Assembly (NCBI GenBank): GCA_016929895.1
Contig: JAFGHW010000001.1
Coordinates: forward strand, 135 to 64,134
DNA: 64,000 nucleotides
Source of the DNA: Candidatus Woesearchaeota archaeon
GTDB taxonomy: Archaea; Nanobdellota; Nanobdellia; Woesearchaeales; ARS49
Reading direction: 5' to 3'
Shown here one piece after another: positions 32,522 through 58,444 of this stretch. The notes under the pieces were generated by a model that worked only from the letters and a program-made list of their open reading frames with translations, searched no databases and had not been told where the DNA came from. A program made the position numbers and the translations under genes. Each line of letters opens with the position of its first letter. The first letter of the stretch is position 1.

Positions 32522-33706
32522 CTAAACCCAGCCAAAATACATAGCAACAAACATTCCAATACCTAATAACAAGATTATTATTCCTGCAATCAAATGAAGA
32601 ATCTTTAACTGCTTTTTTCTCCACTTCTCTGCCTTATGCGTTGTTGTCAAGCCAAAATAAATCGCTCCTGTAATCAGCAGCATAGGAAGAATAAAAATAA
32701 GATTATAAATCAGCAAAAGAAGCAAAGCATAATTCTTTGTAGCAGTCTTTGCAAGCAAACCAAGAATAACAATATACGGGCCAGAAGTGCAAGGCAAAAG
32801 AAACAAACTAACAATAAAACCAATCAAAAAAGCACCAGGAACAGAAGTAACGCCGCCAATAATGCATTTAAGCCTTGGACGCCAAGACACAGGAACTTCC
32901 ATAACAAACCATTTTCCATAAGCAAAAAAATCTTTCAAATTAAACAAACCAACCAAAATTGCAAGAACAGCAACAATTGTATAAAAGTAATGAGTAAATT
33001 TTGCTGCCTGAATAGCAGAATACAAACCCAAACCCATTAAAAAATACGAAATATAAATCGAAAAAGTAAAAGCCAACCCAGCATAAAGAGCGCGCTTTCT
33101 ATTATCTGCTGCCAGAATAGTAGTCAATAAAATAATCAATACAGCAAAAGCACAGGGATTAATAGCATCAACAGCAGCAGCAGAAATAACTGCTCCCAAA
33201 GTCAAGCTCTGCTTTAATTTTGTTTTACCCGGGTCTTCAAGAGGAGAACTCTCAGCAACAATAGAAGTAGTTTCAGGAGTTTTAACATGCTCCATTGGGT
33301 CGTTACATCCGTCTAAAGAACATCTTTCAATCTCTTTTTCTAAAGAAGCTCCAATAGAATCACTAAAACCAACAAAAACCTTATCATCAATAAAAACAGT
33401 AGGCACGCCAGAAATCTCCTCACCAAATGAAGCCGCCATATCCTGAAATAATTCACGATTAGCATCATCAAAATAAATTTCCTTTTTAATAATCTTAATA
33501 TTGCTATATTTTAATTCGATATCATCAAGAAAAGAAATTAACTTAGCACAATGAGGACATCCTTTTCCATAAAAGTCATAAAGAATCACTTCTTTAGACC
33601 CTATACCAATAACAGTTCCAGTGGATGTAAAATTATTAATAGAAAAAACAAGCGCAATAATCAATACAAAAAATAAAAAAAAAGCTGCAATGCCTATTTT
33701 TTTCAT
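32522..33706 (-). CDS. Thioredoxin-domain / CcdA (DsbD-like) fusion disulfide reductase membrane protein.
   Basis: CPHC thioredoxin active site in the periplasmic-like domain. The CcdA TM domain has the conserved Cys pairs INPCAF and LLPCTSGP. Confidence 0.7.
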   Translation of the reverse strand: MKKIGIAAFFLFFVLIIALVFSINNFTSTGTVIGIGSKEVILYDFYGKGCPHCAKLISFLDDIELKYSNIKIIKKEIYFDDANRELFQDMAASFGEEISGVPTVFIDDKVFVGFSDSIGASLEKEIERCSLDGCNDPMEHVKTPETTSIVAESSPLEDPGKTKLKQSLTLGAVISAAAVDAINPCAFAVLIILLTTILAADNRKRALYAGLAFTFSIYISYFLMGLGLYSAIQAAKFTHYFYTIVAVLAILVGLFNLKDFFAYGKWFVMEVPVSWRPRLKCIIGGVTSVPGAFLIGFIVSLFLLPCTSGPYIVILGLLAKTATKNYALLLLLIYNLIFILPMLLITGAIYFGLTTTHKAEKWRKKQLKILHLIAGIIILLLGIGMFVAMYFGWV

Positions 33707-36482: not shown

Positions 36483-37082
36483 ATGGCAAATATAGACCTC
36501 ATACAAAGGTTCATTAAAATCTACAGTTCTGCACAAGTAGCAATAGACTCAAATAACAAAGATACTGCAGAACAAAAATACCAAGAACTTCTTGACCTAT
36601 ATAATATAATAAAAAACTCTGACTTAGACTATAACCATAAAAAAATAGCATACACCCAAATACAAAAAGTATACAATGGAATAAAAGGAATAGACACAAG
36701 AACAAGCATAAACAGATATGTCTTTGCAATAGCAGTATTTGTAATACTAATAAGCTTTGCAGTCTTTGCAAAACCATCATTCTTCGGGCTAACAGTTCTG
36801 GAAGAAGGACTGTATGGAAACCAAGCACCATATTGGAACTCAGAACAAAAAAACTTCGAATTCCAAGACCAACTAACACTAAACCTAAATGAATACTTTG
36901 CAGACCCAGAAGGAGATGAACTGACATTCCTCACAAAACACCAAAAAGGACTAAAAATCGCATTATCTGGAAACCAAATAACTGTACAAAACGACGGAGC
37001 CCGAGGAGAAATCCCATTAGAACTAATAGCATCAGATGGAAAAAGAATGACCAAAGAAACAGTAATACTTACTTCTAAATAA
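36483..37082 (+). CDS. Single-pass membrane protein (helical N-domain, TM, extracytoplasmic C-domain).
   Basis: ORF track, preferred over the low-complexity mirror ORFs 36514..36927(-) and 36629..37114(-). Confidence 0.4.
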   Translation: MANIDLIQRFIKIYSSAQVAIDSNNKDTAEQKYQELLDLYNIIKNSDLDYNHKKIAYTQIQKVYNGIKGIDTRTSINRYVFAIAVFVILISFAVFAKPSFFGLTVLEEGLYGNQAPYWNSEQKNFEFQDQLTLNLNEYFADPEGDELTFLTKHQKGLKIALSGNQITVQNDGARGEIPLELIASDGKRMTKETVILTSK

Positions 37083-37147: not shown

Positions 37148-38572
37148 ATGAAGAAAATAATAGTGCTAATTATAATTCTACTAATCACGGCTCCATTAAG
37201 CAATGCAGAAATTTTCAGACTGGCAAATGTAAAAACATCTCCTTCTAAAATAGATAGAAGAACAGCAACAATAACAGAAGTGCCAGTTCAAATACAAACA
37301 GTATTTCTGCAAACAAATCCCAGAGAAGAAGCAAAAATAATATCAGCAAAAGCAAAATGTGAATCAGAAGACTTAATTGACTATTTCATAATAAAAGAAA
37401 CAACAAGAACACCAATAATTATCACAAAACTAATGCCTGCTACTGAAAAAAATTCAACAGAAATAAACTGCACAATACAATTAAAAATACTGCAAAACAA
37501 TAATACAATAGAAGAAGAAAAACAAATACAACAAACAATCCAATTATACTCAAATCCACTGGGCGAAATAAATGAAAACATACAAAACAAAATAAACCAA
37601 ATAAATGAAGACATACATGATTTTGAAAAACAAATAGCACATCTGGAAAGAACAAACCGAGTTCTGGGACAAATCGCGTCATATTCAGAAACAGCAGCAA
37701 AAGGAGACGCAATAATAACACAAGTACTCGGAGTAATATGGCCAATAGCAGTAGCACTTGAAGAAATCCCCACGCCGTACACAAAAGCAGCAGGAAGACT
37801 CTTATGGAATATAGCCGGAAAAGGACTTCATTCAGGCCACACATTTGTTTTATGGGCGATATGGAATCCCGGGTACAGCATAACAGGAGCCAGCACAATA
37901 CTAAGCACATTCACAAAAACATTGACAATAATGCAATCATGCCAGCTTTGCGATTATTCAGAAACACATACTGCCCTGATAGAACAAGCAGCAGGGGAAA
38001 AAATATTCACATTAGACGACAAACATGGAGAACCAACAACAATAGAGCAATTCACGATATATGAATGGGAGCCATATAAAAGCATACACGTAGCACAAGC
38101 ATGCCTTTGCCTGCCAGCAATTTCATACAATCTGGAAAAAGAAAAACAAATCAAATGCATTTACAAAAACTGCATAGAACAAAACGCAGAATACGGATTC
38201 CCTTTAACAGAATGCGAAAAAACACTAAAACAACAACAATGCCTGTATGTTGACGGAGCAGCCTGGAAAATATCAGGAGGAAATGCAGCGGCGCAAATAT
38301 TCTCTGAAATAACCAACACAATAATGAAACAACTGCCCGTAATATTTGCAGGAGAAATATGGCAAAACCTTTGCGATTATGAAACAGGAGTGTTTTCACA
38401 AGAAGCATATCCTGAAACATTTGGCCAGCCAAATATTCTCTCTGATATGGCCGTGCCATTATGCGCAGCAACAGCAGGAATGCAAATGCTTCAAGAAACA
38501 GGATTTTTCAAAGGAAACAAATACAAATGGGACCAGTACACAGGAAAACTAAAAGGAGATGATTATTGTTGA
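37148..38572 (+). CDS. Secreted protein A of the surface-protein cluster: signal peptide, coiled coil, hydrophobic helices and the shared Cys-rich module (ACLCLPAISYNLEKEKQIKCIYKNC...).
   Basis: Signal peptide MKKIIVLIIILLITAPLSNA. C-terminal module shared with the 1104-aa and 1865-aa proteins. Confidence 0.5.
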   Translation: MKKIIVLIIILLITAPLSNAEIFRLANVKTSPSKIDRRTATITEVPVQIQTVFLQTNPREEAKIISAKAKCESEDLIDYFIIKETTRTPIIITKLMPATEKNSTEINCTIQLKILQNNNTIEEEKQIQQTIQLYSNPLGEINENIQNKINQINEDIHDFEKQIAHLERTNRVLGQIASYSETAAKGDAIITQVLGVIWPIAVALEEIPTPYTKAAGRLLWNIAGKGLHSGHTFVLWAIWNPGYSITGASTILSTFTKTLTIMQSCQLCDYSETHTALIEQAAGEKIFTLDDKHGEPTTIEQFTIYEWEPYKSIHVAQACLCLPAISYNLEKEKQIKCIYKNCIEQNAEYGFPLTECEKTLKQQQCLYVDGAAWKISGGNAAAQIFSEITNTIMKQLPVIFAGEIWQNLCDYETGVFSQEAYPETFGQPNILSDMAVPLCAATAGMQMLQETGFFKGNKYKWDQYTGKLKGDDYC

Positions 38573-39030
38573 ATAAAAAAATAATATTTTTAATTATAGT
38601 GATTTTATTAGCCGCGCTTGTTTACGGCGGAGTTAGAACACCAACAACACCGTGGTATGAAGTAGAAGAATGGGAAATAGAAGTCTGCTCAAAATTCGCC
38701 GGAAACACTGCTCCTGAAAATGCAGAAACAGAAACTGGATTTGCCGCGTACGGAACAACAAGCATGACAATACAAGCATACAAAACAAATCTGGGCGATG
38801 AAAACTTCTATGAAGTATATTATTACATCGAACCATATGAAGAAACACAACAATATATTTTACAATTAGTTAATGAAAACCAAAAACTGAATTATGAAAT
38901 AGCATCAGGCACAATAGGAATAAATGCAGGAGTTGCAGATTATTACACAAATTATTCAACACAAAACTTTAATGAAGTGCGATTAGTGCACAAATACGGA
39001 GCATTCAAGGTTCCGATAATAGAAAGATGA
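38566..39030 (+). CDS. Membrane-anchored small protein B (N-terminal TM, Tyr/Glu-rich ectodomain).
   Basis: ORF overlapping neighbours by 7 nt and 4 nt (translational coupling). Confidence 0.4.
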   Translation: MLNKKIIFLIIVILLAALVYGGVRTPTTPWYEVEEWEIEVCSKFAGNTAPENAETETGFAAYGTTSMTIQAYKTNLGDENFYEVYYYIEPYEETQQYILQLVNENQKLNYEIASGTIGINAGVADYYTNYSTQNFNEVRLVHKYGAFKVPIIER

Positions 39031-41483
39031 AAACAAATAAAGCCAATGCCGCGCCACGTTATGGAAGCAAAGCACAAGTAACACTATTTATTATCCTTGG
39101 AATAATTATTTTACTTGCATTAGGATTAGGAATATACTTTGCAACAAAAGTAATTATCAAGCCAAAAATGCCGGCGACAGAAACCGCGATACAAGAATAT
39201 GTCCAGGAATGCATAAAACAAACAGCAATAATCGCGCTAAAAAAAATAGGGGACAATGGAGGATATATTTCATTTGAAAACAAATACAGAGAATTTAATT
39301 TACAAACAGAACCAGCAGAAGGAGACGGGCTGCCAATCTCTGAAATAGAACTGTACTCAATACCCTGCTGGTGGTATATGAAAACACCAAACCAATGCAA
39401 CAACTGCTATTTAACATCAGACAATATGCCATTACTTCCAGAAATAGAAGAACAAATCAATGAGTATGTTGCTAACAATTTAAACATATGCATTAAAGGA
39501 TTTGCGCCGTTCACTAACCAATACACAATCAAAACAAAACAAGAACCAATAATAGAAACACAAATCACAAAAGACTCAATAAGAATAACTTCTGAATACC
39601 CTATAGAAATCTCAAAAGCAGGGCAAACAACAAAAATAAAAGACTTTGAAACAGAAATAAATGTAAAATTCAAGGACATATATGATTTGGCCACTGAAAT
39701 AATAAACCTGGAAAAAGAAAAATCAGTAATTGAAGAAAGAATAATGCACATGCTGAGCGCGCATATGGGCGCGTCTTATGACAAACTGCCGCCAATATCA
39801 GAAATAACACACGACTATTATCTAATCACATGGGCGAAAGAAATAGTAAAAATAAAAATACAACAAACACTAAACAGTTACATGCCATTGCTTAGATTTT
39901 ACGGAACAAAAAACTCCAAAGAAATAAACTCAAAAAACAAATACACAAAAGGATTTTACAATGCAATGCAAATAAATGACCTCAACAAAAAATACAACTT
40001 ATTTTTAGACATATCCTATAATGACTGGCCGATTTATTTTTCAATAAACCCAGAACCATTAACAGGAACATATCACAAACAAAACTTCCCATATGACATA
40101 CTCCCGCCAATACAAACAAATACATATGAATTTTATTACGACCTGTCTATCCCGCTTTTATTCCAAATAAGAGACTCAAACGCATTTGGAGGAGAAGGAT
40201 ATACTTTGAATTTTGCAGTAGAAACAAACATAAGAGACAATAAAAACCCAAACAACTGGAATATCGGACAAGGAACATTAGGACCATGGGATTCAAGCAA
40301 AACAAAACAAGAAACACTAATAATCAACAGAACATCAGGCAAATGCACTGAAACAGCAGGAAAATACCAATGCAGTATTGACAACAAAAAATACGAAACA
40401 ATAACACAATGCACAGAAATGTGCTACACAGAAAAAAGAATAAGCCAAACAAAAAAAATATTTAAAACAGAGTTCTGCTCTGCTGAACAAAAACTAAGCG
40501 GAAAAATAAAAATAATCGTAAAATCAGGGCAAGAAAAAATAGAAACCGCAGGAATAAGCTACCGCTGCGGAAATTATAAAACCTGTTCTATAGGAATTAC
40601 CGACGAGAACGGAGAAGCAGAATTCCAACTGCCAATCTGCTATGGCGGAGCATTATCAGTACACAAACCAGGATATAAAACTGAAAAAGTTTCATTAAAC
40701 ACAGAAATAAACAAAGCAGAAATAATCAATTTTGACTTGAAAAAAGAAAAAGAATTCACAGTCAGCTTTAAAAAAATGCCTATAACTTCAACAGAAACAA
40801 AAAATGGAATAGAAGCAAGCTGCTGCGACAAAAAACAAAACCCTATTTCAACACAAAAAGCAACATTGAGCATAGAAAAAGTCAAAGAAAATCCTATTGA
40901 CACCTCGTTTGTACAAGCAATTGTTATTGACCAAGATTCAAAAATAAAATTAGTCCCGGGAAAATACAAAGTAACAATGCAATACCTTGACGAAATAGGA
41001 ATAGTAATCCCAGCAGAATGCAAATCAGTCTGCATAGAAGAAAAACAAAACAACGCAATCAAAGCATGCAGCACCGCATGCAAGGAAAACACAGAAATAA
41101 GCAAAACCAGCTGCAAAATAATATTCCCATTAAAACCAGAATGGTGCGAAGACCTGGACTTTGCAAAACAACAATGCGAAGAACACTGCGCAAAAACAGA
41201 ATGCAAAAAATGGATGAAACTGCCTGAAGAAGACATGAACATCAGGCCGGCTTTATTAGGCGGAGCAATGATTGATTCTGAAAACGGATACTGGATTGTT
41301 ACAGAAGCAGACATAAACTCAGGACTCACCAATATCAATTTTTACGTTCTAGAAGTACCAACGCCAACATGCCTTGATACAACAGGATGTGCATACCCGC
41401 CATGCATAGGATTAGACGAAATAGGAAAAATAAAAGAATATTCTGACTTATTCAGACAAGAATTAGAACCAGTATTTAGCTAA
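39027..41483 (+). CDS. Large (818 aa) surface protein P1 with a class III (type IV pilin-like) signal-peptide-like N-terminus and a carboxypeptidase-regulatory-like beta-sandwich motif. Paralogue of P2 and P3.
   Basis: N-terminal ...RYGSKA|QVTLFIILGIIILLALGLGIYF. Conserved blocks GDNGGYI, PCWWYM, GGEGYTLNFA, and TDENGEAEFQLPICYGGALSVHKPGYK. Confidence 0.55.
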   Translation: MKTNKANAAPRYGSKAQVTLFIILGIIILLALGLGIYFATKVIIKPKMPATETAIQEYVQECIKQTAIIALKKIGDNGGYISFENKYREFNLQTEPAEGDGLPISEIELYSIPCWWYMKTPNQCNNCYLTSDNMPLLPEIEEQINEYVANNLNICIKGFAPFTNQYTIKTKQEPIIETQITKDSIRITSEYPIEISKAGQTTKIKDFETEINVKFKDIYDLATEIINLEKEKSVIEERIMHMLSAHMGASYDKLPPISEITHDYYLITWAKEIVKIKIQQTLNSYMPLLRFYGTKNSKEINSKNKYTKGFYNAMQINDLNKKYNLFLDISYNDWPIYFSINPEPLTGTYHKQNFPYDILPPIQTNTYEFYYDLSIPLLFQIRDSNAFGGEGYTLNFAVETNIRDNKNPNNWNIGQGTLGPWDSSKTKQETLIINRTSGKCTETAGKYQCSIDNKKYETITQCTEMCYTEKRISQTKKIFKTEFCSAEQKLSGKIKIIVKSGQEKIETAGISYRCGNYKTCSIGITDENGEAEFQLPICYGGALSVHKPGYKTEKVSLNTEINKAEIINFDLKKEKEFTVSFKKMPITSTETKNGIEASCCDKKQNPISTQKATLSIEKVKENPIDTSFVQAIVIDQDSKIKLVPGKYKVTMQYLDEIGIVIPAECKSVCIEEKQNNAIKACSTACKENTEISKTSCKIIFPLKPEWCEDLDFAKQQCEEHCAKTECKKWMKLPEEDMNIRPALLGGAMIDSENGYWIVTEADINSGLTNINFYVLEVPTPTCLDTTGCAYPPCIGLDEIGKIKEYSDLFRQELEPVFS

Positions 41484-42864: not shown

Positions 42865-45045
42865 ATGTATAATAAAAGAGGACAAGTAACTATATTCATA
42901 GTTATAGGACTCATACTTCTACTAGCAGTAGGCATAACAATCTACTTATATTCTGTTCAGGAACCAAGAGTAATTGAACAGGCAGAACTTCCAAGAGTGC
43001 AGCAAGTGCCAATAGAAGCAGAACCAATAAGACAATATGTGCGGGCATGCATAGAAGAAACAGCAAAAGAATCATTAATAAAACTAGGAGAACACGGAGG
43101 ATACATAGACACAACAGGATTTGCATACAATCCAATAGAACCGACAGAAGGCACTGCAGTTCAGTTCTCAAAAAATTCTGAATTAATAATACCATACTGG
43201 CGGCATATGGACTCGCCTAACACCTGTTTCTCAAACTGCCAATTTGACAGCAAAAGACCAACAATACAACAAATCAAAAAACAACTAGAAACCTATATGA
43301 ACCAAAACATAGAAAACTGCCTGGGAAATTTTGAAGCATTCCCAGAATACATATTCTCAAAAACAAAACCGCCACAAACAACAGTAACAATAGGACAAAA
43401 AAACATAGTATTCTACGTAGAATATCCGTTACATGCAACAAAAGGAACAACAACATTTGAAATACCTGACTATGCAACAAATATTGATTTGAATCTAAAA
43501 GAAATATACGATGTATCAACAAAACTAGTAGAACTAGAAAGCCAATACGGATACCTGGAAAAATACACAGGCCAATTAATCTCAGTATTCTCCAGATTAG
43601 ATGAAGATGCACTGCCGCCAATAGCAGAACTAGACATTGGACTAGGAGCAGGAACAATATGGACAGAACCACAAATCAAAGAAAAACTAACAGGAATGTT
43701 AACAAGCTATATCCCATTGCTACAAGTACCAGGAACACTAAACTACAAAGACAGAAACGCACCACAAGGAACAACAGACCCAGAACTATACAGAACCCTT
43801 TACAACAGAAACACAGCAGTATTATTAGACGAAGAAATAAAAGAATTACACCCAGAACTAAAAATCAATTTCAACTATCTTGACTGGTGGGATCCATACA
43901 TAGACGTATGCCCTGGCCAAGTCTGCCAAGCAGAAACAGCAACAAGCTCAATGCCAATGCTGGGAATGGTAATAGGAATACAAAGATACAATTTTGCATA
44001 TGACCTAAGCTTTCCAATACTAATCGAACTAACAAATCCATACTCGTTTAAAGGAGAAGGATACACATTCAAATTCTTCATAGAACACAACATGAGAGCA
44101 AACCAGCCAATGAAAACAAACTATCAAAGAACTCAAATGCTTGACATATCTGAAAACACAATGCTATGCAAAAAAGAACACTGGACTTCAGAAGAATTCA
44201 CGATAAAAGTAAATGACGGAAAAACAAAACAACCAGTAGATGAAGCACAAATCGCCTTTAACTGCGGAACAGAAAGCTGCAACATAGGAACAACAACCAA
44301 CGGAGAAATAAAAACAAAACTCCCGCAATGCATAGGAGGAATGATTCTTGTAGAAAAAAATGAATACCATCCTGCCAATGCTCTTGCAGACACGTCAAAA
44401 AAAGAAGAACAAACAATCACAATAACTCTTGAACCATACAGGCTGATAGACATAAACACAATGAAATGGCTAGTCAAGAAAACAGGACAAAATGCATGGA
44501 GCCTAGATGAAACAGGAAAAGCACACCCAGAAAAAGACGAAGAAACACTGATAATGCTTGAAAGACAAACCTCTGACTTAGAAGAAGCATTCAGAACTTC
44601 AGCACAAATATGCGGAGGACTAACAAAAGCAAAAATTCCATGCGGAGACCCTCCACGAGACAATTCAAAAAACATCAGAATGCTGCCGGGAAAATACAAA
44701 GTAAAAATATTCAATTTCAGATACCCACAACCAGCAGTAATAATACCAAAAGACCTGAGAACATTTGACGCCGGCCCATTTGCAGACCCAAAAAAAGTAT
44801 ACATACCTTCAGAAGACATAGTTTTTGACCAAAAACAACCACTGCCAACAGGAATAGCAGAATTTGAATGGGAACTAACAAAAGATGCACTAGACTCAAC
44901 AAATGAAATAACATTCAATTACTTATACTTTGCACTTGACAAAATACCAAAAAGCAACAGAAAAATCGAAGACTTAGAACAAATAGGAAAAATGCAATCA
45001 TACTCAACACTCTACAGAAAATATCTGGAGCCAGAACTTATATGA
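42865..45045 (+). CDS. Large (726 aa) surface protein P2 with a class III signal-peptide-like N-terminus (MYNKRG|QVTIFIVIGLILLLAVG). Paralogue of P1 and P3.
   Basis: Shared blocks GEHGGYID, PYWRHM, FKGEGYTFKFF, and FNCGTESCNIGTTTNGEIKTKLPQCIGGMILVEK. Confidence 0.55.
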   Translation: MYNKRGQVTIFIVIGLILLLAVGITIYLYSVQEPRVIEQAELPRVQQVPIEAEPIRQYVRACIEETAKESLIKLGEHGGYIDTTGFAYNPIEPTEGTAVQFSKNSELIIPYWRHMDSPNTCFSNCQFDSKRPTIQQIKKQLETYMNQNIENCLGNFEAFPEYIFSKTKPPQTTVTIGQKNIVFYVEYPLHATKGTTTFEIPDYATNIDLNLKEIYDVSTKLVELESQYGYLEKYTGQLISVFSRLDEDALPPIAELDIGLGAGTIWTEPQIKEKLTGMLTSYIPLLQVPGTLNYKDRNAPQGTTDPELYRTLYNRNTAVLLDEEIKELHPELKINFNYLDWWDPYIDVCPGQVCQAETATSSMPMLGMVIGIQRYNFAYDLSFPILIELTNPYSFKGEGYTFKFFIEHNMRANQPMKTNYQRTQMLDISENTMLCKKEHWTSEEFTIKVNDGKTKQPVDEAQIAFNCGTESCNIGTTTNGEIKTKLPQCIGGMILVEKNEYHPANALADTSKKEEQTITITLEPYRLIDINTMKWLVKKTGQNAWSLDETGKAHPEKDEETLIMLERQTSDLEEAFRTSAQICGGLTKAKIPCGDPPRDNSKNIRMLPGKYKVKIFNFRYPQPAVIIPKDLRTFDAGPFADPKKVYIPSEDIVFDQKQPLPTGIAEFEWELTKDALDSTNEITFNYLYFALDKIPKSNRKIEDLEQIGKMQSYSTLYRKYLEPELI

Positions 45046-48000
45046 AACCAAAAATAATTGCAGGAATACTAGCAATGCTCGTAATAATGCTAACACCAGC
45101 ATATGCAGCACAAATGGACATAACAAAATACTCAGGAACAGACGAAATAAACGGGTATGCAAGAAGTTCTGACCAAATAACAATAGAAGCAACAGCAGAA
45201 ATGTACGGAAGCCCGTCAATGGAAGTTGCAGCCAGAAGATTAAAAATATATCACTCAGGAATAAGCGAAAGATTCCAAACCTGCTCAACAATAGGAAAAA
45301 CAGCATACAAATGCACATACACAACAACAGGACCATACTCAGGACAAAAACAATTCAAAATAGAACTGCTTGATGCAGACGGAAATGTAATAGAAGCAAC
45401 AGAAAAAACAATAATCATTGACAATCTCGCGCCGATAATAACTGACTTCAGCATAACACCATTACGCGGAACAAACAAAAAAGTAACAATTAATTACAAA
45501 GCAGAAGATTACGCCACAACAACAAGCGACACTTCAACATGCTCTGGAATAAAAGAAATTGGATTCTACATCAACAACATAAAAGTTGCAGCAGAAGCAG
45601 GGCAAAAAGAACAATGCCAAAAAGAAAACGCGATAGACTATACAAGACAAGTTTCAGATTATGAAAAAATAAATTTATGCGCCAGAGCAACAGACATGAT
45701 AAACCAACAAAGCGACCCAGTATGCAAAGAATATGAAATAGACAACCAGCCGCCGCAAATCATATCATTACAACTAAAAGATGCAGACGGATTTGACATA
45801 ACCGGAATGAGAAGCGGAACAAGCCTTACAGGAAGCATAGAAGCAGTAGTCAAAGGAAATAATGATGATGTAGATGCAGTAACAGCAGACCTGTCTTATC
45901 TAAATCCATCACTAACAGGAGAAAAAATGCCTGACGAAAGATACGGAAATAATTACGTATGGAAAGACATATCAATAACCAATCCATCAAACTGCAAAGT
46001 AACAATAAGAGCAATAGATGATTTAGGCAATGAAATAATAGAAACAAAAACATGCACAGTACCAGTAGATGACACAGGACCAGAAGCAGTAAAAATAGAA
46101 ACAAACAAAACAGATGAAGACGGAACATTATTAATCGGAAAAAAAGGAACAATAACACTTGAAATACGAGAAGCAGGAGCAGGATTATTCAAAAAACACG
46201 TTTACCTTGACTTGGCATCCCTTGGAAGAAAATATTCATCACAACAAAGAGCAGACACATGCGAAATAAAAACAGGAGATGTATGGGAATGCACATGGGA
46301 AATAGAACCAATAGTGCCAGACAAAGATTATACTATTCGTTTAAGCCCTGCAACACGAGATGACTTGGACAATTCAATAAGCAGTTCAATAGAAACAACA
46401 ATCCGAATTGACAAACAACCGCCAACAATAGAAGACTTTGCATTTTCAGTAAAACATGCATTTGCAGAATACGGAGAAAAAACAGTAAAAGGAGACACAA
46501 TGGAATTCAAAATCAAAACCTACGGAACATTCTATGCATATGCAAACTTCACAGGCATTGGAGGAAACTATGCACCAGGAACATGCGGAGGAGAAAATAT
46601 CAGAACATGCGAATTCAGCCAATTAATTACTCGTTCAGGACCAGACAATGCAACAATAGAATTTGAACTCTTTGACAGAGCAGGAAATAAACAAACATAT
46701 TCCCATGATTTAATAATTTACGGCTTATCAGATGACACATCACCAGAATACTGGAACTCAACAGTTTCATGTTCTCCAAAATTAATCGACCGCAGCACAA
46801 CAGAACAAAAAGAACAAATGATTTACTGCCATATCAATCTTGATTCTACTAATGATGATGCAGAACCTGTTTTTACTTCTATTGATAAATCATTATCAGA
46901 ATGCCGGGGACAACTCGCAGGAATATCAGAAATACAAATGATGAACAATGGATATGGAAGCAAAGACCCATACATGGTAATCACACTAGAACTTGCAGAA
47001 TTTGCAATAAACAACATGAGCTTTAGCTGTCCAATCCATATTGCATCAAAAGTGGGGGACTATTTTTCAAAAGCAGATGAAAGAGAAATAATTGATGTAG
47101 AACTGGAATTTTATGACCTGCCAATAGGAGAGGTATATGAAAACATTGAAAAAGACATTCATCATGAAATGCGAAAAGCAATGACAACAATGAGCTGGAT
47201 AGATGATGTAGAAAAAATCACAGAAATAGCAAGAAAAATCTGCGGGTACAAATCAACAATAACAAGCCTATTAAGTGCATTAGATGGAGTATTCGCATTA
47301 TTCCCACTGTTATATTCCGCATTATACGCATCAGGACAAAAAGGAACAGTAGATGACTTAGAAGCATACAGGGCATCAATGTGCAATGATGCAAGAGGAC
47401 CAGCAGAACAGTTTATATTTGGTCTTGGAGAAAAAGAAGCAAAAGAAAAAAATGCAGAGCCAGAAGCAGCAAAAACAATAGTAGAAAGAATAGCAGGAAC
47501 AGAATCAAGCGAAGCAAAAGCTGTGCAAGATTTTTGGGAATTCATAGACATGTTTTGTGATTTTCTAAACTGCAGACTAACATGGGATGATGCAAAATAT
47601 GCAACACACAAAAAAGGAGTAGAAGCAGGCTGGAAAGAATCAAAACTAGGAACAGGCGAAGAACTATTTCTAATAGGCGGAGGAGGAGGCGGATGGGGCA
47701 AACAAGGCTCTATATGCACTGGTGCTCAAAACATGCTCGGAGCAAGCTGGTTTAGCGAATACCAAACAATGCAGGACAAAATGAGAGGGCCAGGAGAACA
47801 AAGACAACAATTAGTAGATGTAAAAGAAAGCCTGTTCTGGAGCACACTATGCTTTTGTGGGCCAGGAATAATTTATAATTTAAACAAAATCAGGCAAATT
47901 AATTGCAAATACGCACTATGCTTAGCTGAAGAAGTAAAAACACAAGGAATAGACCCTGCATGGTGCCGAGCTGAAAAAGCATACCTAACATGCACATATG

Positions 48001-48356
48001 TAATGGGAGAAATATTTGCGATATTCCCATTATTATCATTTTACGACAAAACAGTCAACATGGTAAAAGAATGGTTTGAAAACCCAATAACAATCCTAGG
48101 AGCAGTATCAGGATGCTTGTGCGGAGGATGCGCAGAATTAGGAATAAATCCATTCTGCGGAGAAGGAGAACTAAAAGATGATCCTTTAAGACAAGCAGCA
48201 GGATATGTAATATGCATTTTACCAAAAACAGCTGCAAAAATAATGGATGCAGTAGCAAGCATAAAATCAATGCCAACATCAAAAGATTATAAAATCGGAA
48301 CAAGCTATTGCGACAAAGCAAGAGAACTAGAACTAGACACAAAGTATGGCAAGTAA
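45042..48356 (+). CDS. Large (1104 aa) secreted protein G: signal peptide, Ig-like repeats, hydrophobic helices and the shared Cys-rich module (CFCGPGIIYNLNKIRQINCKYALC...).
   Basis: Signal peptide MKPKIIAGILAMLVIMLTPAYAA. C-terminal ~350 aa alignable with proteins A and K. A GGGGGGWG stretch. Confidence 0.55.
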   Translation: MKPKIIAGILAMLVIMLTPAYAAQMDITKYSGTDEINGYARSSDQITIEATAEMYGSPSMEVAARRLKIYHSGISERFQTCSTIGKTAYKCTYTTTGPYSGQKQFKIELLDADGNVIEATEKTIIIDNLAPIITDFSITPLRGTNKKVTINYKAEDYATTTSDTSTCSGIKEIGFYINNIKVAAEAGQKEQCQKENAIDYTRQVSDYEKINLCARATDMINQQSDPVCKEYEIDNQPPQIISLQLKDADGFDITGMRSGTSLTGSIEAVVKGNNDDVDAVTADLSYLNPSLTGEKMPDERYGNNYVWKDISITNPSNCKVTIRAIDDLGNEIIETKTCTVPVDDTGPEAVKIETNKTDEDGTLLIGKKGTITLEIREAGAGLFKKHVYLDLASLGRKYSSQQRADTCEIKTGDVWECTWEIEPIVPDKDYTIRLSPATRDDLDNSISSSIETTIRIDKQPPTIEDFAFSVKHAFAEYGEKTVKGDTMEFKIKTYGTFYAYANFTGIGGNYAPGTCGGENIRTCEFSQLITRSGPDNATIEFELFDRAGNKQTYSHDLIIYGLSDDTSPEYWNSTVSCSPKLIDRSTTEQKEQMIYCHINLDSTNDDAEPVFTSIDKSLSECRGQLAGISEIQMMNNGYGSKDPYMVITLELAEFAINNMSFSCPIHIASKVGDYFSKADEREIIDVELEFYDLPIGEVYENIEKDIHHEMRKAMTTMSWIDDVEKITEIARKICGYKSTITSLLSALDGVFALFPLLYSALYASGQKGTVDDLEAYRASMCNDARGPAEQFIFGLGEKEAKEKNAEPEAAKTIVERIAGTESSEAKAVQDFWEFIDMFCDFLNCRLTWDDAKYATHKKGVEAGWKESKLGTGEELFLIGGGGGGWGKQGSICTGAQNMLGASWFSEYQTMQDKMRGPGEQRQQLVDVKESLFWSTLCFCGPGIIYNLNKIRQINCKYALCLAEEVKTQGIDPAWCRAEKAYLTCTYVMGEIFAIFPLLSFYDKTVNMVKEWFENPITILGAVSGCLCGGCAELGINPFCGEGELKDDPLRQAAGYVICILPKTAAKIMDAVASIKSMPTSKDYKIGTSYCDKARELELDTKYGK

Positions 48357-48396
48357 AAAAATTTGGGGCAAATTTTTTTGTGTTCATAATAAAATT

Positions 48397-49446
48397 ATGA
48401 ACAATAAAAAATTAATTGGAATATTATTTGCAATGATTTTGTTAGTTAGCATTATTGTTAACGGAGACACAATAAATATCGGAGACAAAATATATCGTGA
48501 AGAAGAACCGCCAAAAGAAAAAATACCAGAACCACAAGAAGAAAAATATCCGATTTTAGACGTATTTGTAACAACAAAAAAACCAGCAACAAGCGCAGAA
48601 GAATTCTTAGAAGAAGATGAATACCCATTTCCAGAAGAAATAGTAACAAAAAAAAGACTGACAGCAGAAGAATATGAACAATTAGAAGCATGGAAAAAAA
48701 GAAAAGCACAAAGTACAGGAGAACCAAGACCATTAGTTGCAGCATCACAATTCCTAACATATTATGAAGAATACAAAGGATTTGCACGATTTGGCTCGTT
48801 ATTCTTTACAAGCGACGGATGGGAAAGACACAGAGAAAAAATAAACCAAATATTCTGCGACACAATACTCTTAGGAGGAACACAATGCTGGACCTCAAGA
48901 ATATGCGACACACAACTATACCCGCTAGTTCCAAGAAGCGTATTTGCAGGAAGAACACCGAGCGGAGAAAGAACAGCAACAGCAAGCATACAAGGAGAAA
49001 AATCATTAACAATACAAGGAGTAGACGATTTTGACAATCCAGTAACACTCCGCCTTTACAAAACAACATATGCAATAAACAACCCATACGAAGAACAAAC
49101 AATAGAATACAACATACAATACAGAACAGAAGATGGATTTAAAATAAACTGGTTTAATGATTCCCAAACAATTCCGCCAGGAACAAGCGCAAAAAGAACA
49201 GAAGCAAATCCACTAATAGACTATGGAAAAAATGATTACACAGAAGCATGCATAATATTCCACCCATCAATAATAGACTACAGAAACTATCTGGGCAGAA
49301 GAATAAGAGAATGGTGCACTCCAATAATAGAATACGTTGGAACAGCAACAAAACCATACCCCACAGCAACAAACACAACAGAAGAAACACCAACACCACA
49401 AGCACCAGAAGAACTTCCGCAAACATCTGGAAAAACAGGTTTTTAA
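48397..49446 (+). CDS. Secreted protein H (350 aa). The start is taken at the internal Met of track ORF 48346..49446.
   Basis: Signal peptide MNNKKLIGILFAMILLVSIIVNG. Acidic Pro/Glu-rich N-region. Thr/Pro-rich C-terminus. Confidence 0.4.
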   Translation: MNNKKLIGILFAMILLVSIIVNGDTINIGDKIYREEEPPKEKIPEPQEEKYPILDVFVTTKKPATSAEEFLEEDEYPFPEEIVTKKRLTAEEYEQLEAWKKRKAQSTGEPRPLVAASQFLTYYEEYKGFARFGSLFFTSDGWERHREKINQIFCDTILLGGTQCWTSRICDTQLYPLVPRSVFAGRTPSGERTATASIQGEKSLTIQGVDDFDNPVTLRLYKTTYAINNPYEEQTIEYNIQYRTEDGFKINWFNDSQTIPPGTSAKRTEANPLIDYGKNDYTEACIIFHPSIIDYRNYLGRRIREWCTPIIEYVGTATKPYPTATNTTEETPTPQAPEELPQTSGKTGF

Positions 49447-49447
49447 A

Positions 49448-50227
49448 ATGAAACAAATGAAAAAAGAAAAAAAATCAATCAAACAAATAATACAAAGAAC
49501 TTTTACAGAATTTTTAGCCAGCTTTAAAGACAAAAACATAATATGGGTATTTTCCTATGACATATGCTTTTTGCTAACCGCCGGAATACTGGCAAAAGCA
49601 GCATCAAAACTAATGTCAACACAATTAGCCAGATTAGGACTAACAAACGTGCAATCACTAACACCAGAAATAATAAGCCAACAACTTGGAGCAATAAAAA
49701 CACTTGCAATAACCTTTTTCATAATAATAATCATTTTTTATCTGCTGTTAATACTCGATTATGCATTATTCAGAGCATGGATATGGACCAAATTATTAAA
49801 CCAAAAACCAACAAAAGCATTTGTAAAACGATTTTTTATATTAAACCTGATTTGGGCAACCGGCTGGGTTACACTGTTTGGCATAGGAGCAACAATACTA
49901 ACCCCAGAATACTATGTTTACATGCTTGGGATAGGAACAATCCTGTACATACACCTAACAACAGTGCTGCATCACAGCTTTGCATGGAAACAAGAAATCA
50001 AAAGAGCAATAGGAAAAGCATTTACAACAGGAATAGGCCATACCGGCTTGTTTTTTATACCATATATTTATATAATAATTATTTATATAATCCTAACAAA
50101 AGCATTTACACTAATACCAGAACAAATACAGTATCCTGCAATATTTTTGATTATCATAATATTCATGGCCTGGTACAGAGTCTATATGAACCAGGTTATA
50201 AAAAACATAGAAAAAAGAGGTATATAA
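49448..50227 (+). CDS. Polytopic membrane protein I (~5 TM). The start is taken at 49448 (MKQMKKEKK), downstream of the track ORF start 49337.
   Basis: Hydrophobic segments throughout. ATG 2 nt after the preceding stop. Confidence 0.4.
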   Translation: MKQMKKEKKSIKQIIQRTFTEFLASFKDKNIIWVFSYDICFLLTAGILAKAASKLMSTQLARLGLTNVQSLTPEIISQQLGAIKTLAITFFIIIIIFYLLLILDYALFRAWIWTKLLNQKPTKAFVKRFFILNLIWATGWVTLFGIGATILTPEYYVYMLGIGTILYIHLTTVLHHSFAWKQEIKRAIGKAFTTGIGHTGLFFIPYIYIIIIYIILTKAFTLIPEQIQYPAIFLIIIIFMAWYRVYMNQVIKNIEKRGI

Positions 50228-52191
50228 TGGGGAAAAAAGCACAAGTTACGCTTTTCATAATATTGGGCGTAATACTCCTTCTAAGCATAGGACTGGTAGT
50301 TTACTTAACAACACAAAGAGTAGTAAAACCAGTAGAAGAAAAACTAATCATACCAGAAGGAACAGAACAAGTATACGAATACATATCAGAATGCGTTTAT
50401 CAAACAGCAAAAGAAGGAATAATCAAACTTGGACTGCAAGGAGGATATGTAAACATGCCTGCAGAAATAAAAAACACGCCTGCAAGCCGTATTTCCCTAG
50501 ACCCTTATGAAGCCTTTTACATACCGTACTGGTTTTATCAAAACCAAGACAGAACACCAACACTAGAACTTCTACAAATGGAAATTGATTCATACCTAAG
50601 ACAAAGACTGCAAGACTGCGTTGATTTTTCAAGCTTTACACCCCAGTACAATGTTAGAACAAGAGGGGAATTCATCCCAAAAACAACAATAACAAAAGAC
50701 AAAGTAATAGTAGAACTAATCTGGCCAATAGAAATAATCAAAACAGACAAAACAATCCAATTAAACAAAATAGTAAAGGAAATCGATGTCAAGCTAAAAG
50801 AAATCTATGACATAGCCACAACAACAATGGAATTTGAAAACAAAAAAGCGGCATTTGAAAACATAACACTAGGACTAATATCTGCAAATCCAGACATACC
50901 AACAAACGGAATGATACTAGACTGTACGCCAACAAGATGGTATTTACATGAAATAGAACAAGAAACAAAAAACATGCTTGCCTACAATATTCCATCAGTA
51001 AGAATAGAAAACACACCATACACTCCATTTGATGCATCAAGAAGAACATATTCAAACCTGGAAAAAGATTACGAAGACATACTCAAAGAATTAGAAAAAG
51101 ACAAACAACCAAAATTTCCGTCTGAAACACCAGATGATTCCTATGAATATTTCAAAATGCTGTTAGACATAGGAATCAAGCCAACAGAAATAAAAACAGG
51201 ATTTATCTACAGGCCAGAATGGGAACTAACAATAATACCGTACCCGCACCAAGGAAATGTGCTAAAATCAAACAAAATACAAGGAGCAAGAAAATACCTA
51301 AGCTACTTATGCCTAAACCAATGGCACTTTGTATATGACATAGAACATCCAGTTGTAATGATTTTAAAAGATGACACAGCATTCAAAGGGGAAGGATACA
51401 CATTCCAATTCGCATTCCCTGTGTTAATTGATGACAATGAAGCAAAAAGAGAAATACTAGACCGAAGACAATTCACAACAGACAAATACTATTATGAATT
51501 CTGCGAAGAAACAGGAGAAAAAACATACGACATAAGAGCAATAGGAATAACACCAGGAGCAATGTTTGCAACAGAACTAGAAGGAGCAAACATCACATAT
51601 ACCTGCTTTAACAGATACTGTGAACTAGGAAAAACAATAGGTGATGGTGGAATCTACCGCCTAAGAACCTCATTACCAACCGGCTGTGTAAACCCATTTA
51701 TTGCAGCATCAAAACAAGGATATTTACCTTCAACAAAACAAATGACAGAAGATACAATAGAAATTCCTCTGAAAAAATTGAAAAAAATGAATTACAAGAT
51801 AATCATACACAAGTACAATTCATTAACAGGACAATACGAACAAACCAGAACAGAACTAAAAGACACTGAAAACATTGCAATAGTCCTGGGAATACTTGAC
51901 TCAGACCATTACCAATACAAAACATACACTGAAGAAGACACAATAGACCTTGTAGACGGAACAGCAGACTATGAAATAGACATATTACTAACACGGGTTG
52001 ACTCTTTGGTAGGAGGATACAGCCAAGAAAAAGTAAAAATCGATTACAACGAACTTGCAGGAAAAAATACAATCGTATTCCACATATTTGAATACTCACC
52101 AGTCCCTCTAAATGATGAAGGAAGAGCAAAACTTGCAAATTATCTCTATGAAGGAGAATATGATGCTATTTTAAAACCAACATTTGAATAA
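50227..52191 (+). CDS. Large (654 aa) surface protein P3 with a class III signal-peptide-like N-terminus (MGKKA|QVTLFIILGVILLLSIG). Paralogue of P1 and P2. It is the in-frame C-terminal part of track ORF 49564..52191.
   Basis: Shared blocks GLQGGYVN, PYWFYQ, FKGEGYTFQFA. AGAGGT SD before the ATG at 50227. Confidence 0.55.
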   Translation: MGKKAQVTLFIILGVILLLSIGLVVYLTTQRVVKPVEEKLIIPEGTEQVYEYISECVYQTAKEGIIKLGLQGGYVNMPAEIKNTPASRISLDPYEAFYIPYWFYQNQDRTPTLELLQMEIDSYLRQRLQDCVDFSSFTPQYNVRTRGEFIPKTTITKDKVIVELIWPIEIIKTDKTIQLNKIVKEIDVKLKEIYDIATTTMEFENKKAAFENITLGLISANPDIPTNGMILDCTPTRWYLHEIEQETKNMLAYNIPSVRIENTPYTPFDASRRTYSNLEKDYEDILKELEKDKQPKFPSETPDDSYEYFKMLLDIGIKPTEIKTGFIYRPEWELTIIPYPHQGNVLKSNKIQGARKYLSYLCLNQWHFVYDIEHPVVMILKDDTAFKGEGYTFQFAFPVLIDDNEAKREILDRRQFTTDKYYYEFCEETGEKTYDIRAIGITPGAMFATELEGANITYTCFNRYCELGKTIGDGGIYRLRTSLPTGCVNPFIAASKQGYLPSTKQMTEDTIEIPLKKLKKMNYKIIIHKYNSLTGQYEQTRTELKDTENIAIVLGILDSDHYQYKTYTEEDTIDLVDGTADYEIDILLTRVDSLVGGYSQEKVKIDYNELAGKNTIVFHIFEYSPVPLNDEGRAKLANYLYEGEYDAILKPTFE

Positions 52192-52194: not shown

Positions 52195-55100
52195 ATGAAA
52201 ACAAAAAAAACAATTGCAATAATGATGATGGTTTTAATAGTGATGATGCCAATTGTTTATTCAGAACCTTCTGAAACATTTGAATTATTTGCAACAGTGC
52301 CGACTGCAACAAAAGACAACACAGTAACAATAACAGGAACAACCAAAGCAAACATTGATGTAGTTGTAAGCGTAAACAAAGCGCGTGTTGCTGAAATAAT
52401 AAGCGATTCTAATGGAGAATTCTCAACATCACCAATTACTCTTGTTCAAGAAAACAATGACATAACCATAAAAGCAACAGATTCCCAAGGAAACATCAGA
52501 ACATTAACCTACAATATAAAACTAGACAACAGTCCTCCAAAAGTTACTTACATAAACATACCAACAGGAAGCCAAACAAGAACAATAACCATCACTGGAA
52601 CAACAAATGAACCAGTAACAATTGACTGGAAAACAAGCAATTTAACAATCTACAAATCAGTTCAAGCAAAGGATACTTTTAATTTTAATATTGACTTAGA
52701 AGACGGATTAAACAAACTCGAACTAATAGCAAAAGACTCGGCAGGAAATCAAGACAAGCAAGAATTTGAAATAATGCACGATGTAGTTGCACCAAGCTTT
52801 TTATTAACAAACCTTGACGGACTAGACAATTGCTATCTGGATTTCCCGGCAATAAAAGGAAAAAAAGTCGACATAACAGGACAATTAAATGAAAAAGCAA
52901 CAATATTTGTATATGTAAACCATGAATCAAACCCAAGCAAAGTAAGAACAACAGATGAAACAGGATATTTCAGAATAAAAGATGTTCTGCTTGAAGGAAC
53001 ACTAAAAATAAAAACAAGCCCAACACAAACAACAATAGAAACAGGAAACCAATACGAAAATCACATCCGACTTGTTGCAAAAGACCTTGCAGGAAATGAA
53101 GCCCAAATAGAAAAAACAATCACCTGCGAAACATGCGGAGGGGGCGCAGCAGGATATTCATTAAACACAGCATCAGCACTACAAGCAATGACACCGACAG
53201 AATTATTGCCAAGCCTTTTAATAACAGGCATAGAAACAATTACAATACCATTTAACCTAAGCTATGTCGGACTAAATGAAGCAGCAATACGGAGCATACA
53301 AGTAACACCAGTAATAATGGGGCCGGAATATGAAAAAGACTATGATAATGACAAAATAACTGCATCAGTCCTGCCTTTATACTCCAGAGACAAGCAAACA
53401 GCAACAGGAATCATACAAATAAAAATAAACAAATTCGACCCATTAGGAAGTTCTGAAAAAGATGCAACACACTACAGAAGAGAATACAATGTATCAAGGC
53501 ACAGATATGGAAAATGCGCATTCCAGCCAGAACTAGGAAAAGACTTAGATTACGGATGCATGAGATTCTTTCTAATGATGGAAGTACAATACCAAGAAAC
53601 AACTGAACAAACTTATCTAGACCCAAATGTCCAGCAAACAGGACTAAAAAGAGAAAACAAAATACAAAAAATCTGTTTTTCAAACATAGAAGTATCAATA
53701 GCCAAAGTAACAGAACAGTATATTCCTAAAAAAATGGTCAAAAAATGGATAAAAAACATAGACCATATCCTAAAAAAAGCAGAACCAGTAAAAGAATATC
53801 TTGACACTGCAACAGAATATGCAACTTACACATGCCTGGCAAGCGCAGGAACACTTGCACTTGCAAGACTGGCAGAACTAACAACGTGCCAAATATCAGA
53901 ATGGATTGCCTCTATTGGAGAAGCCAGCTGGCACTCAGAAATAGCAGAAGCAGGAATATGCGAACTAGTATATCATGAAGATTTTGATAAAAAGGGCAGT
54001 GAAAAAGGAATCAAAGGAAATGAAAGAGCAAGAAACTCATGCATAGCCTGCTCTGAAATGATAGGACTAAGAAAATGGATAGAATATGAAGTAATGCACC
54101 GTGCATGCGACAGAGTCGGGTGTCCTGCAGCCAAAACATTCAAATCATACATTCAAGACAAAGCAGGAAAAATAAACGACATAACACCATACATAAAAAC
54201 TCATTTTGACAAAGCAAAAGCACAAGGAAAAGAAACAGAAAGCAAAATGCAGACAATACTAACAGAACACGGCGCGCCAATGACACAACAAACAAATGTT
54301 GCCAACAAGAGAGTATTTGTAGGAAATGACTGCGGATTTACAACAACACCAAAATACATCAGCACAACATACAGCGACATTTCTGGAAAAGGAATAAAAA
54401 CATTATACGAATACACAAAAGCCCAAGGACCAAGAGAATACTGCACAAAATATTTGCGGGCAGCACAGCCAGAATGCTGCGGCATAAATTATGCGCGCGA
54501 ATGGAGCACAGCATGCGGAATAGGACAAGTAAGCGGAGAAAATGTTTTCTTACTAGACACATTTGACGAACTAAAAGAAAGCACATGCTATGCAGCAAGA
54601 CAAGCAGGAGACCCGTCAGCAGCAGGAACAGGAATAGACTGCAGCGGAGGAATGCTATGGAATGCAATGGCAGGATTTTGCGAGCCAAACACAGGGGCTG
54701 CAGTAGACGAAGTAATCCACACAGGAATGAATTACGAACCAAGAAAACAAGACTCAGAAGACAACAGAGTTTATGTATTTGTAACACCAGAAATAAATGC
54801 AAAAAAAGAAACAGAAGACTATAAAATATACCGCGGATATGCTGTCAATAAACTAAAATACGAAGCCAACAAAGAAGAACACAAAGACGCAAAAAGATTA
54901 ACACAATCATTATACAAAGTTTATGACAGTGAAAACCTTGCGCATATTTTCAAAAACGAAAAAACTAGTGACAAACAAAAACAAGCTGAACTGAAAACAG
55001 CACTATGCGAAAAAAATAAAAAACAAGATGTTGAAAAATGCGAGAATATAGAAAGAACATACAACAGAATAAAAGAAATAATCGGTTCAGAAGACAACAA

Positions 55101-57792: not shown

Positions 57793-57856
57793 AAAACCTT
57801 TATATATAATAAAAGCAAAAAATATTAAAAAAGGTGATAAATTGCAAAAAATAATG

Positions 57857-58444
57857 GGATTTTTTTTCTTTATATCATTCTTAGGATTTGGACTGATGCT
57901 TGGAGGACTATACATAATATCAACAGGAGAATTTGTTCTTCAGCCAATAGAAGAATTCGGTCTGTTTGAAACATCGCAAATGTTCAGCACAGGACAAGCA
58001 TTTGAACAACCAACACTGACAGTACAACCACAACTTCAGGAAGGAGAAATGCCAAAAGACTCATTAATACCTGCAGACATACAATTATACGTCAATAGAA
58101 TACCAGTAGCAGCCAATTTTCAATCAGCATTCATACCCATATATCACGATGACATGAAAACCTTTTCAGGAAAATTCGGGCCATATGATTTTGACCCAAG
58201 ACAATTCATAGGAGCAAAGCTATGCTCTTTTCCAAAAACATTCCCAGACATGCTAAACTGCGAAACAGTAGCATTAAACTATGCAAACGGCTATGTTCAT
58301 TTTGCAAGAGGATACATGCATGACGAATACATAGGAAGACAAGCACTAAAAAATTACGGCGCAGTATATTTTATAGTAAGCCCGACATACGGCAACATAG
58401 CCCAAAGCCCAACTGCAATCATAAAGGTGGTAGAACATGACTGA
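57857..58444 (+). CDS. Membrane-anchored protein L (N-terminal TM MGFFFFISFLGFGLMLGGLYII). An alternative TTG start at 57842 follows an AGGTGA SD.
   Basis: Internal start of track ORF 57746..58444, chosen to avoid a 47-nt overlap with K. Confidence 0.35.
   Translation, partial: GFFFFISFLGFGLMLGGLYIISTGEFVLQPIEEFGLFETSQMFSTGQAFEQPTLTVQPQLQEGEMPKDSLIPADIQLYVNRIPVAANFQSAFIPIYHDDMKTFSGKFGPYDFDPRQFIGAKLCSFPKTFPDMLNCETVALNYANGYVHFARGYMHDEYIGRQALKNYGAVYFIVSPTYGNIAQSPTAIIKVVEHD

Follow-up and report, generated by a model that had tools for sequence, protein, structure and literature searches.

A new family of Cys-rich secreted proteins with a predicted helical module, encoded beside prepilin-like proteins in Woesearchaeota-type DPANN archaea

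In bacteria, minor pilins carry the non-pilin adhesin PilY1, as encoded by the fimU-pilVWXY1E operon, and proteins of the PilY1/PilC type have a C-terminal PilY1-type β-propeller with a calcium site. The stalk proteins of archaeal surface layers (S-layers) are typically anchored by their C-terminus, as in SlaB and in the S-layer proteins of haloarchaea and methanogens. Little is known to us of how DPANN archaea bind their hosts and make use of them, and we know of no characterised surface structures in Woesearchaeota. Here we describe a stretch of 64,000 nt from a Candidatus Woesearchaeota archaeon (DPANN; GCA_016929895.1, JAFGHW010000001.1, positions 135-64,134 of the forward strand), referred to as the window, which encodes three Cys-rich proteins, A, G and K (the M family), each paired with a pilin-like protein (P1, P2 and P3). 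The window has a GC content of about 35% with archaeal housekeeping genes in its flanks, and the sequence of A matches NCBI JW851_00260 (Candidatus Woesearchaeota) at 100% identity. We put a probability of about 0.55 on the reading that this Woesearchaeota-type DPANN archaeon secretes A, G and K as paralogous proteins of its surface and that they are, judging from their context, disulfide-stapled partners of the P proteins at the cell surface. The three proteins and their Cys-rich modules are located as follows.

37148..38572, plus strand: protein A, 474 aa, minimal family member (translation and AlphaFold2 model).
38060..38374, plus strand: Cys-rich module in A, aa 305-409, with C319, C321, C337, C342, C356 and C365.
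45042..48356, plus strand: protein G, 1104 aa (translation).
47808..48122, plus strand: Cys-rich module in G, aa 923-1027, with C937, C939, C955, C960, C975 and C984.
52195..57792, plus strand: protein K, 1865 aa (translation and Pfam).
55105..55458, plus strand: Cys-rich module in K, aa 971-1088, with C985, C987, C1008, C1022, C1031 and C1040.

The sequence-only reading of this DNA had proposed a Cys-rich module common to A, G and K and had quoted one peptide from each protein. All three peptides are present exactly (A aa 318-346, G aa 937-965, K aa 985-1013), and in a six-frame translation of the window the motif C-x-C-x-P lies within open frames at three sites only, namely those in A, G and K. 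Between A and G the relationship is direct: BLASTP aligns the motif regions with E=4e-6 and gives a collinear upstream high-scoring segment pair with E=4e-4, and comparison of the A-family and G-family profiles by hhalign yields E=4.7e-20 at a probability of 99.3%. The homology spans the whole of A, which aligns with the C-terminal ~540 residues of G, and 12 Cys residues are invariant across both families. Judged from these alignments, A is a minimal version of G and does not merely share a module of 120 residues with it. For K the common module holds at the family level, where deep profiles align with E=5.4e-8, and the alignment of the three segments thus survives statistical testing. The proposed length of ~120 aa fits neither relationship, since the homology between A and G is far longer and only ~85-90 residues are detectable with K.

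The signature put forward earlier, C-x-C-x-P-x-[IV]-x-[YW]-x3-K-x3-[IL]-x2-C, had to be replaced. It requires shifts to accommodate K, its last step in A and G reads [IL]-x-C, and the Cys residue that closes it in these two proteins (C337/C955) is absent from the K family. The corrected common pattern is [YW]-x-[WFV]-D-P-x2-[SG]-[IL]-x2-[AS]-x2-C-x-C-[LIV]-P-[GA]-[IV]-x3-L-x3-[KR]-x-[IV]-x4-[KR]-N-C, followed by x13/14-C-x8-C. The spacing C-x-C-x20-C-x13/14-C-x8-C is present in all of A, G and K, while some of the other signature positions, such as the D-P pair, deviate in G and K. A strict regular expression of the module is matched by 120 of the 169 collected family members.

The N-termini of all three proteins read as Sec signal peptides. 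In A, the signal peptide is followed by one β-sandwich (aa 23-134) and an all-helical region with 11 Cys residues (aa 140-474), in which the core signature occupies aa 305-365 (38060-38242) and the third helix of the module terminates at C409. Protein G has several immunoglobulin-like (Ig-like) or β-domains (aa ~25-560) in front of its A-like region (aa ~560-1104). In both, the module forms part of a conserved helical domain that extends over ~340 residues, contains 10 Cys residues and is preceded by one (A) or several (G) β-sandwiches. K carries Ig-like domains (Glucodextran_B, Big_6, Big_13), a large Cys-rich centre holding the module and further C-terminal domains; it keeps the module only, inside a different and larger Cys-rich core, without the A/G Cys residue at +18 and with an insertion of ~13 aa after the hairpin. 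Homologues of K are P0021, P0023 and P0024 together with 17 further K-type proteins. That G and K add N-terminal Ig-like domains, as had been suggested, is borne out for K, whose domains exceed the Pfam thresholds, whereas those of G show only sub-threshold Pfam matches together with an alignment to P0019/P0020; A, too, has an N-terminal β-sandwich.

The AlphaFold2 model of A, built from an alignment of 20 sequences (predicted local distance difference test, pLDDT, 76), predicts the signal peptide, the β-sandwich, a long helical hairpin (aa 140-237, pLDDT 82-90) and helices up to the C-terminus. A separate model of aa 296-474, from an alignment of 38 sequences, reached a pLDDT of 78, with 88-96 in the module core (aa 326-365). 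Its helices comprise residues 313-319 (ending at C319), 322-349 (C337, C342), 354-369 (C356, C365), 380-409 (ending at C409) and 435-450 (C439), and the C-x-C-x-P turn falls between the first two. The module is thus predicted to be an all-helical unit of ~85-105 residues, in which the C-x-C-x-P turn caps a long helix that pairs with a second one, with five to six invariant Cys residues on the module helices and others further along. According to these models it is a hairpin or bundle of helices studded with Cys residues and does not resemble a knot of the EGF type. Most likely the Cys residues form disulfides that staple the helical bundle outside the cell. A disulfide-bonded extracellular state is suggested because the N-termini are of the Sec type, the number of invariant Cys residues is even and a DsbD/CcdA-like gene lies 3.4 kb upstream of A. 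As the Cys residues of A and G are all invariant, they give no covariation signal for the disulfide connectivity. The product of the DsbD/CcdA-like gene (32522-33706, minus strand) is a membrane protein of 394 aa with a DsbD/CcdA-like transmembrane domain (PF02683, E 3.7e-6, just under the cut-off) and a glutaredoxin/thioredoxin fold (PF00462, E 6e-6), and is likely an extracytoplasmic thiol-disulfide oxidoreductase.

The most informative context of the module genes, which had not been mentioned in the sequence-only reading, is that across DPANN genomes they are almost always paired with genes for P proteins. Three such genes are present in the window (the slash marks the predicted cleavage site).

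39027..41483, plus strand: P1, 818 aa, giant pilin-like paralogue, SKA/QVTLFIILG, downstream of A.
42865..45045, plus strand: P2, 726 aa, pilin-like paralogue, KRG/QVTIFIVIG, directly upstream of G and overlapping its start.
50227..52191, plus strand: P3, 654 aa from ATG, MGKKA/QVTLFIILG, directly upstream of K.

The start of P3 at 50227 is preceded by a Shine-Dalgarno-like GAGGT. A longer open reading frame (ORF) for P3, 49564-52191, was rejected as spurious; its extension (49564-50226, 221 codons) is of low complexity and rich in N, T and K. P1-P3 are paralogous at 31% identity, and their N-termini (K-A/G, then Q-V-T-L/I-F-I-I/V-I/L-G) represent a class III, that is prepilin-type, signal. 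Among the complete N-termini of the P family, 59/60 read [KR][KR][GAS]-Q-[VIL]-[TS]-x-[FY]-I-I-I-G. When the more general form [KR].{0,2}[GAS]Q[VILMAT][ST] followed by a hydrophobic stretch was applied, 59/60 matched as well, and so did P1-P3. The P family has no Pfam pilin match.

The window thus holds three cassettes, arranged A-small gene-P1, P2-G and P3-K. A search with a hidden Markov model of the P family in stretches of 8 kb placed a P gene near the module gene in 63/83 loci, usually overlapping the M start or 1-2 kb downstream. The order S6e/PTH2...A-x-P1-...-P2-G recurs in the loci L001 and L084 even though the identity of A has dropped to 36-60% there, and P lies directly upstream of the K-type gene in the window and in the loci L003 and L087. 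Distant relatives also retain the housekeeping surroundings, with genes for ribosomal protein S6e and PTH2 upstream and for a NOG1 GTPase downstream. L087 likewise keeps two small genes downstream of the K-type gene, along with the NOG1 GTPase.

Word-index homologue searches returned few relatives (19 for A, 1 for G, 4 for K), so that an exhaustive profile search was needed. With a module profile of 113 positions, 1.84 billion representatives clustered at 50% identity were searched. At E≤1e-3 this gave 1,653 clusters, of which 738 also passed E≤1e-10. Three architectures recur, namely A-like proteins of ~470-530 aa, the commonest G-like proteins of ~1000-1100 aa, and K-like proteins of 1250-2500 aa with the insertion of ~13 residues. 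In addition, a degenerate DNA pattern made by hand from the A/G-type motif was run on the GTDB species-representative genomes, where 79/79 matches were genuine module ORFs. The record titles of the carriers name Woesearchaeota, Nanoarchaeota/Nanoarchaeia/Nanobdellota and one Aenigmatarchaeota; carriers with reliable-looking names are Woesearchaeota/Nanoarchaeota-type DPANN. Further carriers comprise 28 titles reading 'uncultured Methanosarcinales' and two bacterial ones (Binatia, Myxococcales), all of them third-party (TPA) assemblies, many labelled 'binchicken'.

That the module could not be assigned to a named domain family is in line with our searches: there was no match to it in Pfam, NCBIfam or the PDB sequence profiles, nor in BFVD at E≤0.001, viral fusion proteins included, and no known fold corresponded to it. 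A known EGF-like or S-layer anchoring fold had been named as a possible identity. EGF-like modules are β-hairpin folds of ~35-40 residues with six Cys residues and disulfides 1-3, 2-4 and 5-6, whereas saposin-like ones are compact bundles of 4-5 helices with ~80 residues and three conserved disulfides. What our module has in common with both is six closely spaced Cys residues within ~50 residues of a secreted protein. It gave no EGF-type Pfam match at E≤0.1 or E≤1 and is predicted to be all-helical, and it could be placed neither in the saposin-like (SAPLIP) fold nor, by sequence or fold match, among the S-layer domains (SLH, archaeal S-layer families). The M proteins likewise do not group with PilY1/PilC, since there was no Neisseria_PilC match in Pfam and both A and G are helical towards the C-terminus. 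Nor do they qualify as DUF6710 (PF20457), a family whose function is not known to us: its gathering threshold of 27 bits was not reached, and A itself had no match. The A-family homologues P0008 and P0013 scored 26.3 and 24.5 bits with DUF6710 (residues 122-275, best E 6e-6); this near-match falls in the long-helix region upstream of the module and may be a distant link. Searches of the literature on pili, S-layers and Cys-rich surface proteins of DPANN archaea and Woesearchaeota yielded no account of the M family. Other secreted-protein clusters of DPANN and further archaea have been treated by Makarova et al. (PMC6393860, PMC5898192), and we could not connect them with the M family. We conclude that the module is a new, unannotated domain family, restricted to DPANN archaea where the organism labels are trustworthy.

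We infer disulfide formation, surface display, adhesion and physical P-M binding. Because A, G and K lack an anchor of their own and are each paired with a prepilin-like protein, binding of M to its cognate P is the best-supported model. Three related P-M pairs would then be displayed on the cell surface, each held either by the N-terminal helix of P in the membrane or by incorporation of P into a pilus-like fibre. The disulfide-stapled helical domain would serve as the conserved structural or docking core, and the Ig-like domains, which vary, would point away from the cell and mediate adhesion or contact, plausibly to a host cell.

Several observations weigh against this reading. The evidence for P-M binding is indirect; the one apparent fusion of a P protein to a G-type module protein, an ORF of 1657 aa (L018, 3-4973), was discounted as an artefact, as it runs through a stretch of N (masked sequence or a scaffold gap). 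The scanned ORFs of the window include none for a prepilin peptidase or for the ATPase or platform protein of a pilus, so that P could be a simple membrane-anchored protein. The AlphaFold2 models are of moderate overall confidence (pLDDT 76-78, predicted template modelling score ~0.5). The K of the window is not detectable with a profile made from A/G-type sequences only (2.1 bits), and hhalign and a gapless alignment disagree on the K counterparts of the fourth and fifth Cys residues of A. Finally, the Methanosarcinales and bacterial labels of some carriers (L005-L083) do not agree with a restriction to DPANN archaea; they may be placeholders, and the GC content of these loci is in the same range as that of the Woesearchaeota loci.

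Alternatively, P and M may be the two components of an S-layer lattice, with P as the membrane-anchored stalk and M as the canopy, like SlaB and SlaA in Sulfolobus, and the module as a contact domain of lattice or stalk; they would then be no pilus-associated or host-contact device. We regard this as unlikely, although large secreted proteins with many Ig-like domains would suit it. Archaeal S-layer stalks typically have the C-terminal anchor referred to above, and P has a strictly conserved prepilin-type signal at its N-terminus instead. No other S-layer protein is evident in the window and pilus machinery was not found nearby, both of which would suit a lattice, as would the very wide occurrence of the family in the lineage and the conserved housekeeping context in distant relatives (S6e, PTH2; NOG1). 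Nevertheless, three unequal P-M pairs (M proteins of 474, 1104 and 1865 aa) exceed the needs of known one- or two-component S-layers, and there is no sequence or fold match to the S-layer proteins in the PDB.

A bolder version of P-M pairing is that DPANN archaea of the Woesearchaeales type possess a host-contact organelle of their own, derived from a pilus, with the three pairs as its subunits; we consider this doubtful. The module would then dock non-pilin 'heads' (A, G, K) onto giant pilin-like stalks, and the adjacent hydrophobic hairpin would engage the host membrane. If this were true, the cluster would encode the apparatus, long sought in this uncultured group, for attachment or for bridging to the host.

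The hydrophobic helices also bear on a further possibility. They had been proposed to precede the module at a constant position and to interact with membranes, and we determined the best 19-residue hydropathy window of each protein, using a threshold of 1.6. Beyond the N-terminus there is no segment of transmembrane grade in K, and those in A and G are borderline. The best windows score 1.72 in A, 1.76 in G and 1.14 in K and lie 133, 194 and 438 residues before the motif, so that the constant position has to be given up and the hydrophobic character holds, at a borderline level, for A and G but not for K. The segment of A sits within the confidently predicted helical hairpin. We consider it improbable that the M proteins are membrane-active effectors whose helical hairpin enters the membrane of the host much as viral fusion proteins or the tip or translocator proteins of secretion systems do. 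The same low probability is given to a role in building a cytoplasmic bridge between the DPANN cell and its host, with the disulfide-stapled module as a metastable clamp. The length and confidence of the predicted hairpin and the earlier proposal itself would speak for such an activity, as would the family values, in which 55% of the A/G-type proteins reach at least 1.6 (median 1.71). However, the hydrophobicity is borderline and not conserved (K-type median 1.48), BFVD gave no viral fusion match and the match to HAP2/Fsx1 is merely a weak one of the β-sandwich type. On present data a buried bundle helix and an insertion element are indistinguishable, and membrane interaction of these helices is possible but unsupported.

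It has also to be considered that the resemblance of K reflects convergence or chance among Cys-rich helical proteins, so that only A and G share a real domain. Pairwise comparison leaves room for this, with a marginal BLASTP value for A versus K (E=0.038) and nothing found at the motif site for G versus K. Profiles of the small families select the same site in both cases, with hhalign values of E=4.8e-5 (68%) for A-K and E=0.005 (7%) for G-K. When deep alignments were built separately for 97 A/G-type and 21 K-type sequences, the probability rose to 94.8% over 91 columns; with longer flanks it falls to 77%. Outside the stretch of ~85-90 residues, G-type and K-type proteins show no significant similarity (second-best segment E 0.66), and a full-length profile (A4) found 0 K-type proteins at E≤1e-3. 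These values, the low score of the K of the window and the ambiguous Cys register between K and A/G speak for convergence or chance. On the other hand, 13/21 K-type proteins outrank all 441 shuffled or reversed decoy sequences with the A/G-only profile, and in profile searches of 442 six-frame fragments of the window the A, G and K sites are reciprocal best non-self matches. In a gapless register, ~20/40 positions around C-x-C agree in consensus between the A/G and K types, namely Y/W, D-P (-11/-10), S/G, I/L, A/S, C-x-C-L-P-G/A-I/V, L, K/R, I/V and K/R-N-C. The spacing C-x20-C is identical in 120/120 sequences, and x13 and x14, followed by x8, both occur in each type. A MAFFT alignment of the raw module introduced a false gap of 10 residues in A/G, and the gapless register was preferred. 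Moreover, the A/G-type and K-type genes have the same partner, a P paralogue. As judged from these comparisons the three-way module is very probably real, and we regard convergence as quite improbable. A viral or mobile origin of the cluster was rejected, since the DNA pattern had 0 matches in IMG/VR and the chromosomal context is conserved.

Further genes lie between and around the three cassettes.

38566..39030, plus strand: small gene between A and P1, 154 aa, N-terminal hydrophobic helix.
48346..49446, plus strand: gene between G and P3, 366 aa, N-terminal signal or transmembrane helix.
57746-58444 and 58437-59162, plus strand: two small genes downstream of K, N-terminal hydrophobic helices.

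A gene similar in size to 38566..39030 is found at the same place in L001 and L084, its conservation being one of position only. The product of 48346..49446 belongs to no Pfam family. For the product of 57746-58444 a counterpart with 37% identity (E 3e-23) follows the K-type gene in L087 (12027-12629), the NOG1-type GTPase gene being next in both, and these small genes may likewise belong to the conserved parts of the cluster. Directly upstream of A, 36483-37082 (plus strand) encodes a protein of 199 aa with a central hydrophobic helix and a 'DPEGDELTF' segment that is cadherin- or Ig-like by eye; in L001 and L084, too, the gene in front of A is of similar size (200 and 211 aa). More distant in the window, on the minus strand, 20958-25388 encodes a protein of 1476 aa with 85 Cys residues and a lipobox-like N-terminus (LFILAGC), which has no Pfam match and is unmatched by the module profile; it represents a further Cys-rich surface protein without annotation. 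A Bat-like cluster of the MoxR-vWA type (11141-18802, minus strand) comprises DUF58, a MoxR AAA_3 ATPase, DUF7502, a coiled-coil protein, a VWA protein (790 aa) and a BatA/VWA/DUF7407/DUF7408 protein (599 aa). Makarova et al. 2015 (PMC5898192) proposed that clusters of this kind encode a complex for secretion or for the remodelling of membranes.

The M family comprises more than 1,600 clusters at 50% identity and has no entry in Pfam, NCBIfam or the PDB. Its genes lie in a conserved chromosomal cluster, where their order links them to those of giant prepilin-like proteins. The family provides candidates for envelope or host-contact functions, with a sequence signature, domain boundaries and three cognate P-M pairs, as well as a seed alignment for a new domain family. 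Even if the role were purely structural, for example in an S-layer, a substantial block of DPANN 'dark matter' would become annotated.

Among described systems, the SlaA/SlaB S-layers of the Sulfolobales (PMC10903991) resemble the P-M pairs in combining a large, secreted, Ig-like-rich protein with a membrane-anchored long-helix partner encoded by an adjacent gene. They differ in that no homology or fold match exists, the anchor in our case is N-terminal and prepilin-like, and three distinct pairs are present per genome. With archaeal type IV pilins and other class III signal proteins (EppA/PibD substrates), P shares the basic leader, G/A/S followed by Q at +1, and a hydrophobic helix of ~20 residues; this likeness concerns P only, whose cleavage is predicted from sequence, as the M proteins have ordinary Sec signals. 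Bacterial complexes of minor pilins with PilY1 (PilC) at the tip differ from the locus in several respects: M has no β-propeller but is helical and Cys-rich, without sequence or fold relation to PilY1, P is far larger than minor pilins (650-1100 aa), and the system is archaeal with no pilus machinery seen nearby. In both systems, nevertheless, a large Sec-secreted non-pilin protein without an anchor of its own is encoded next to prepilin-type genes, several paralogous pilin-like partners are present, and a role in surface contact is presumed.

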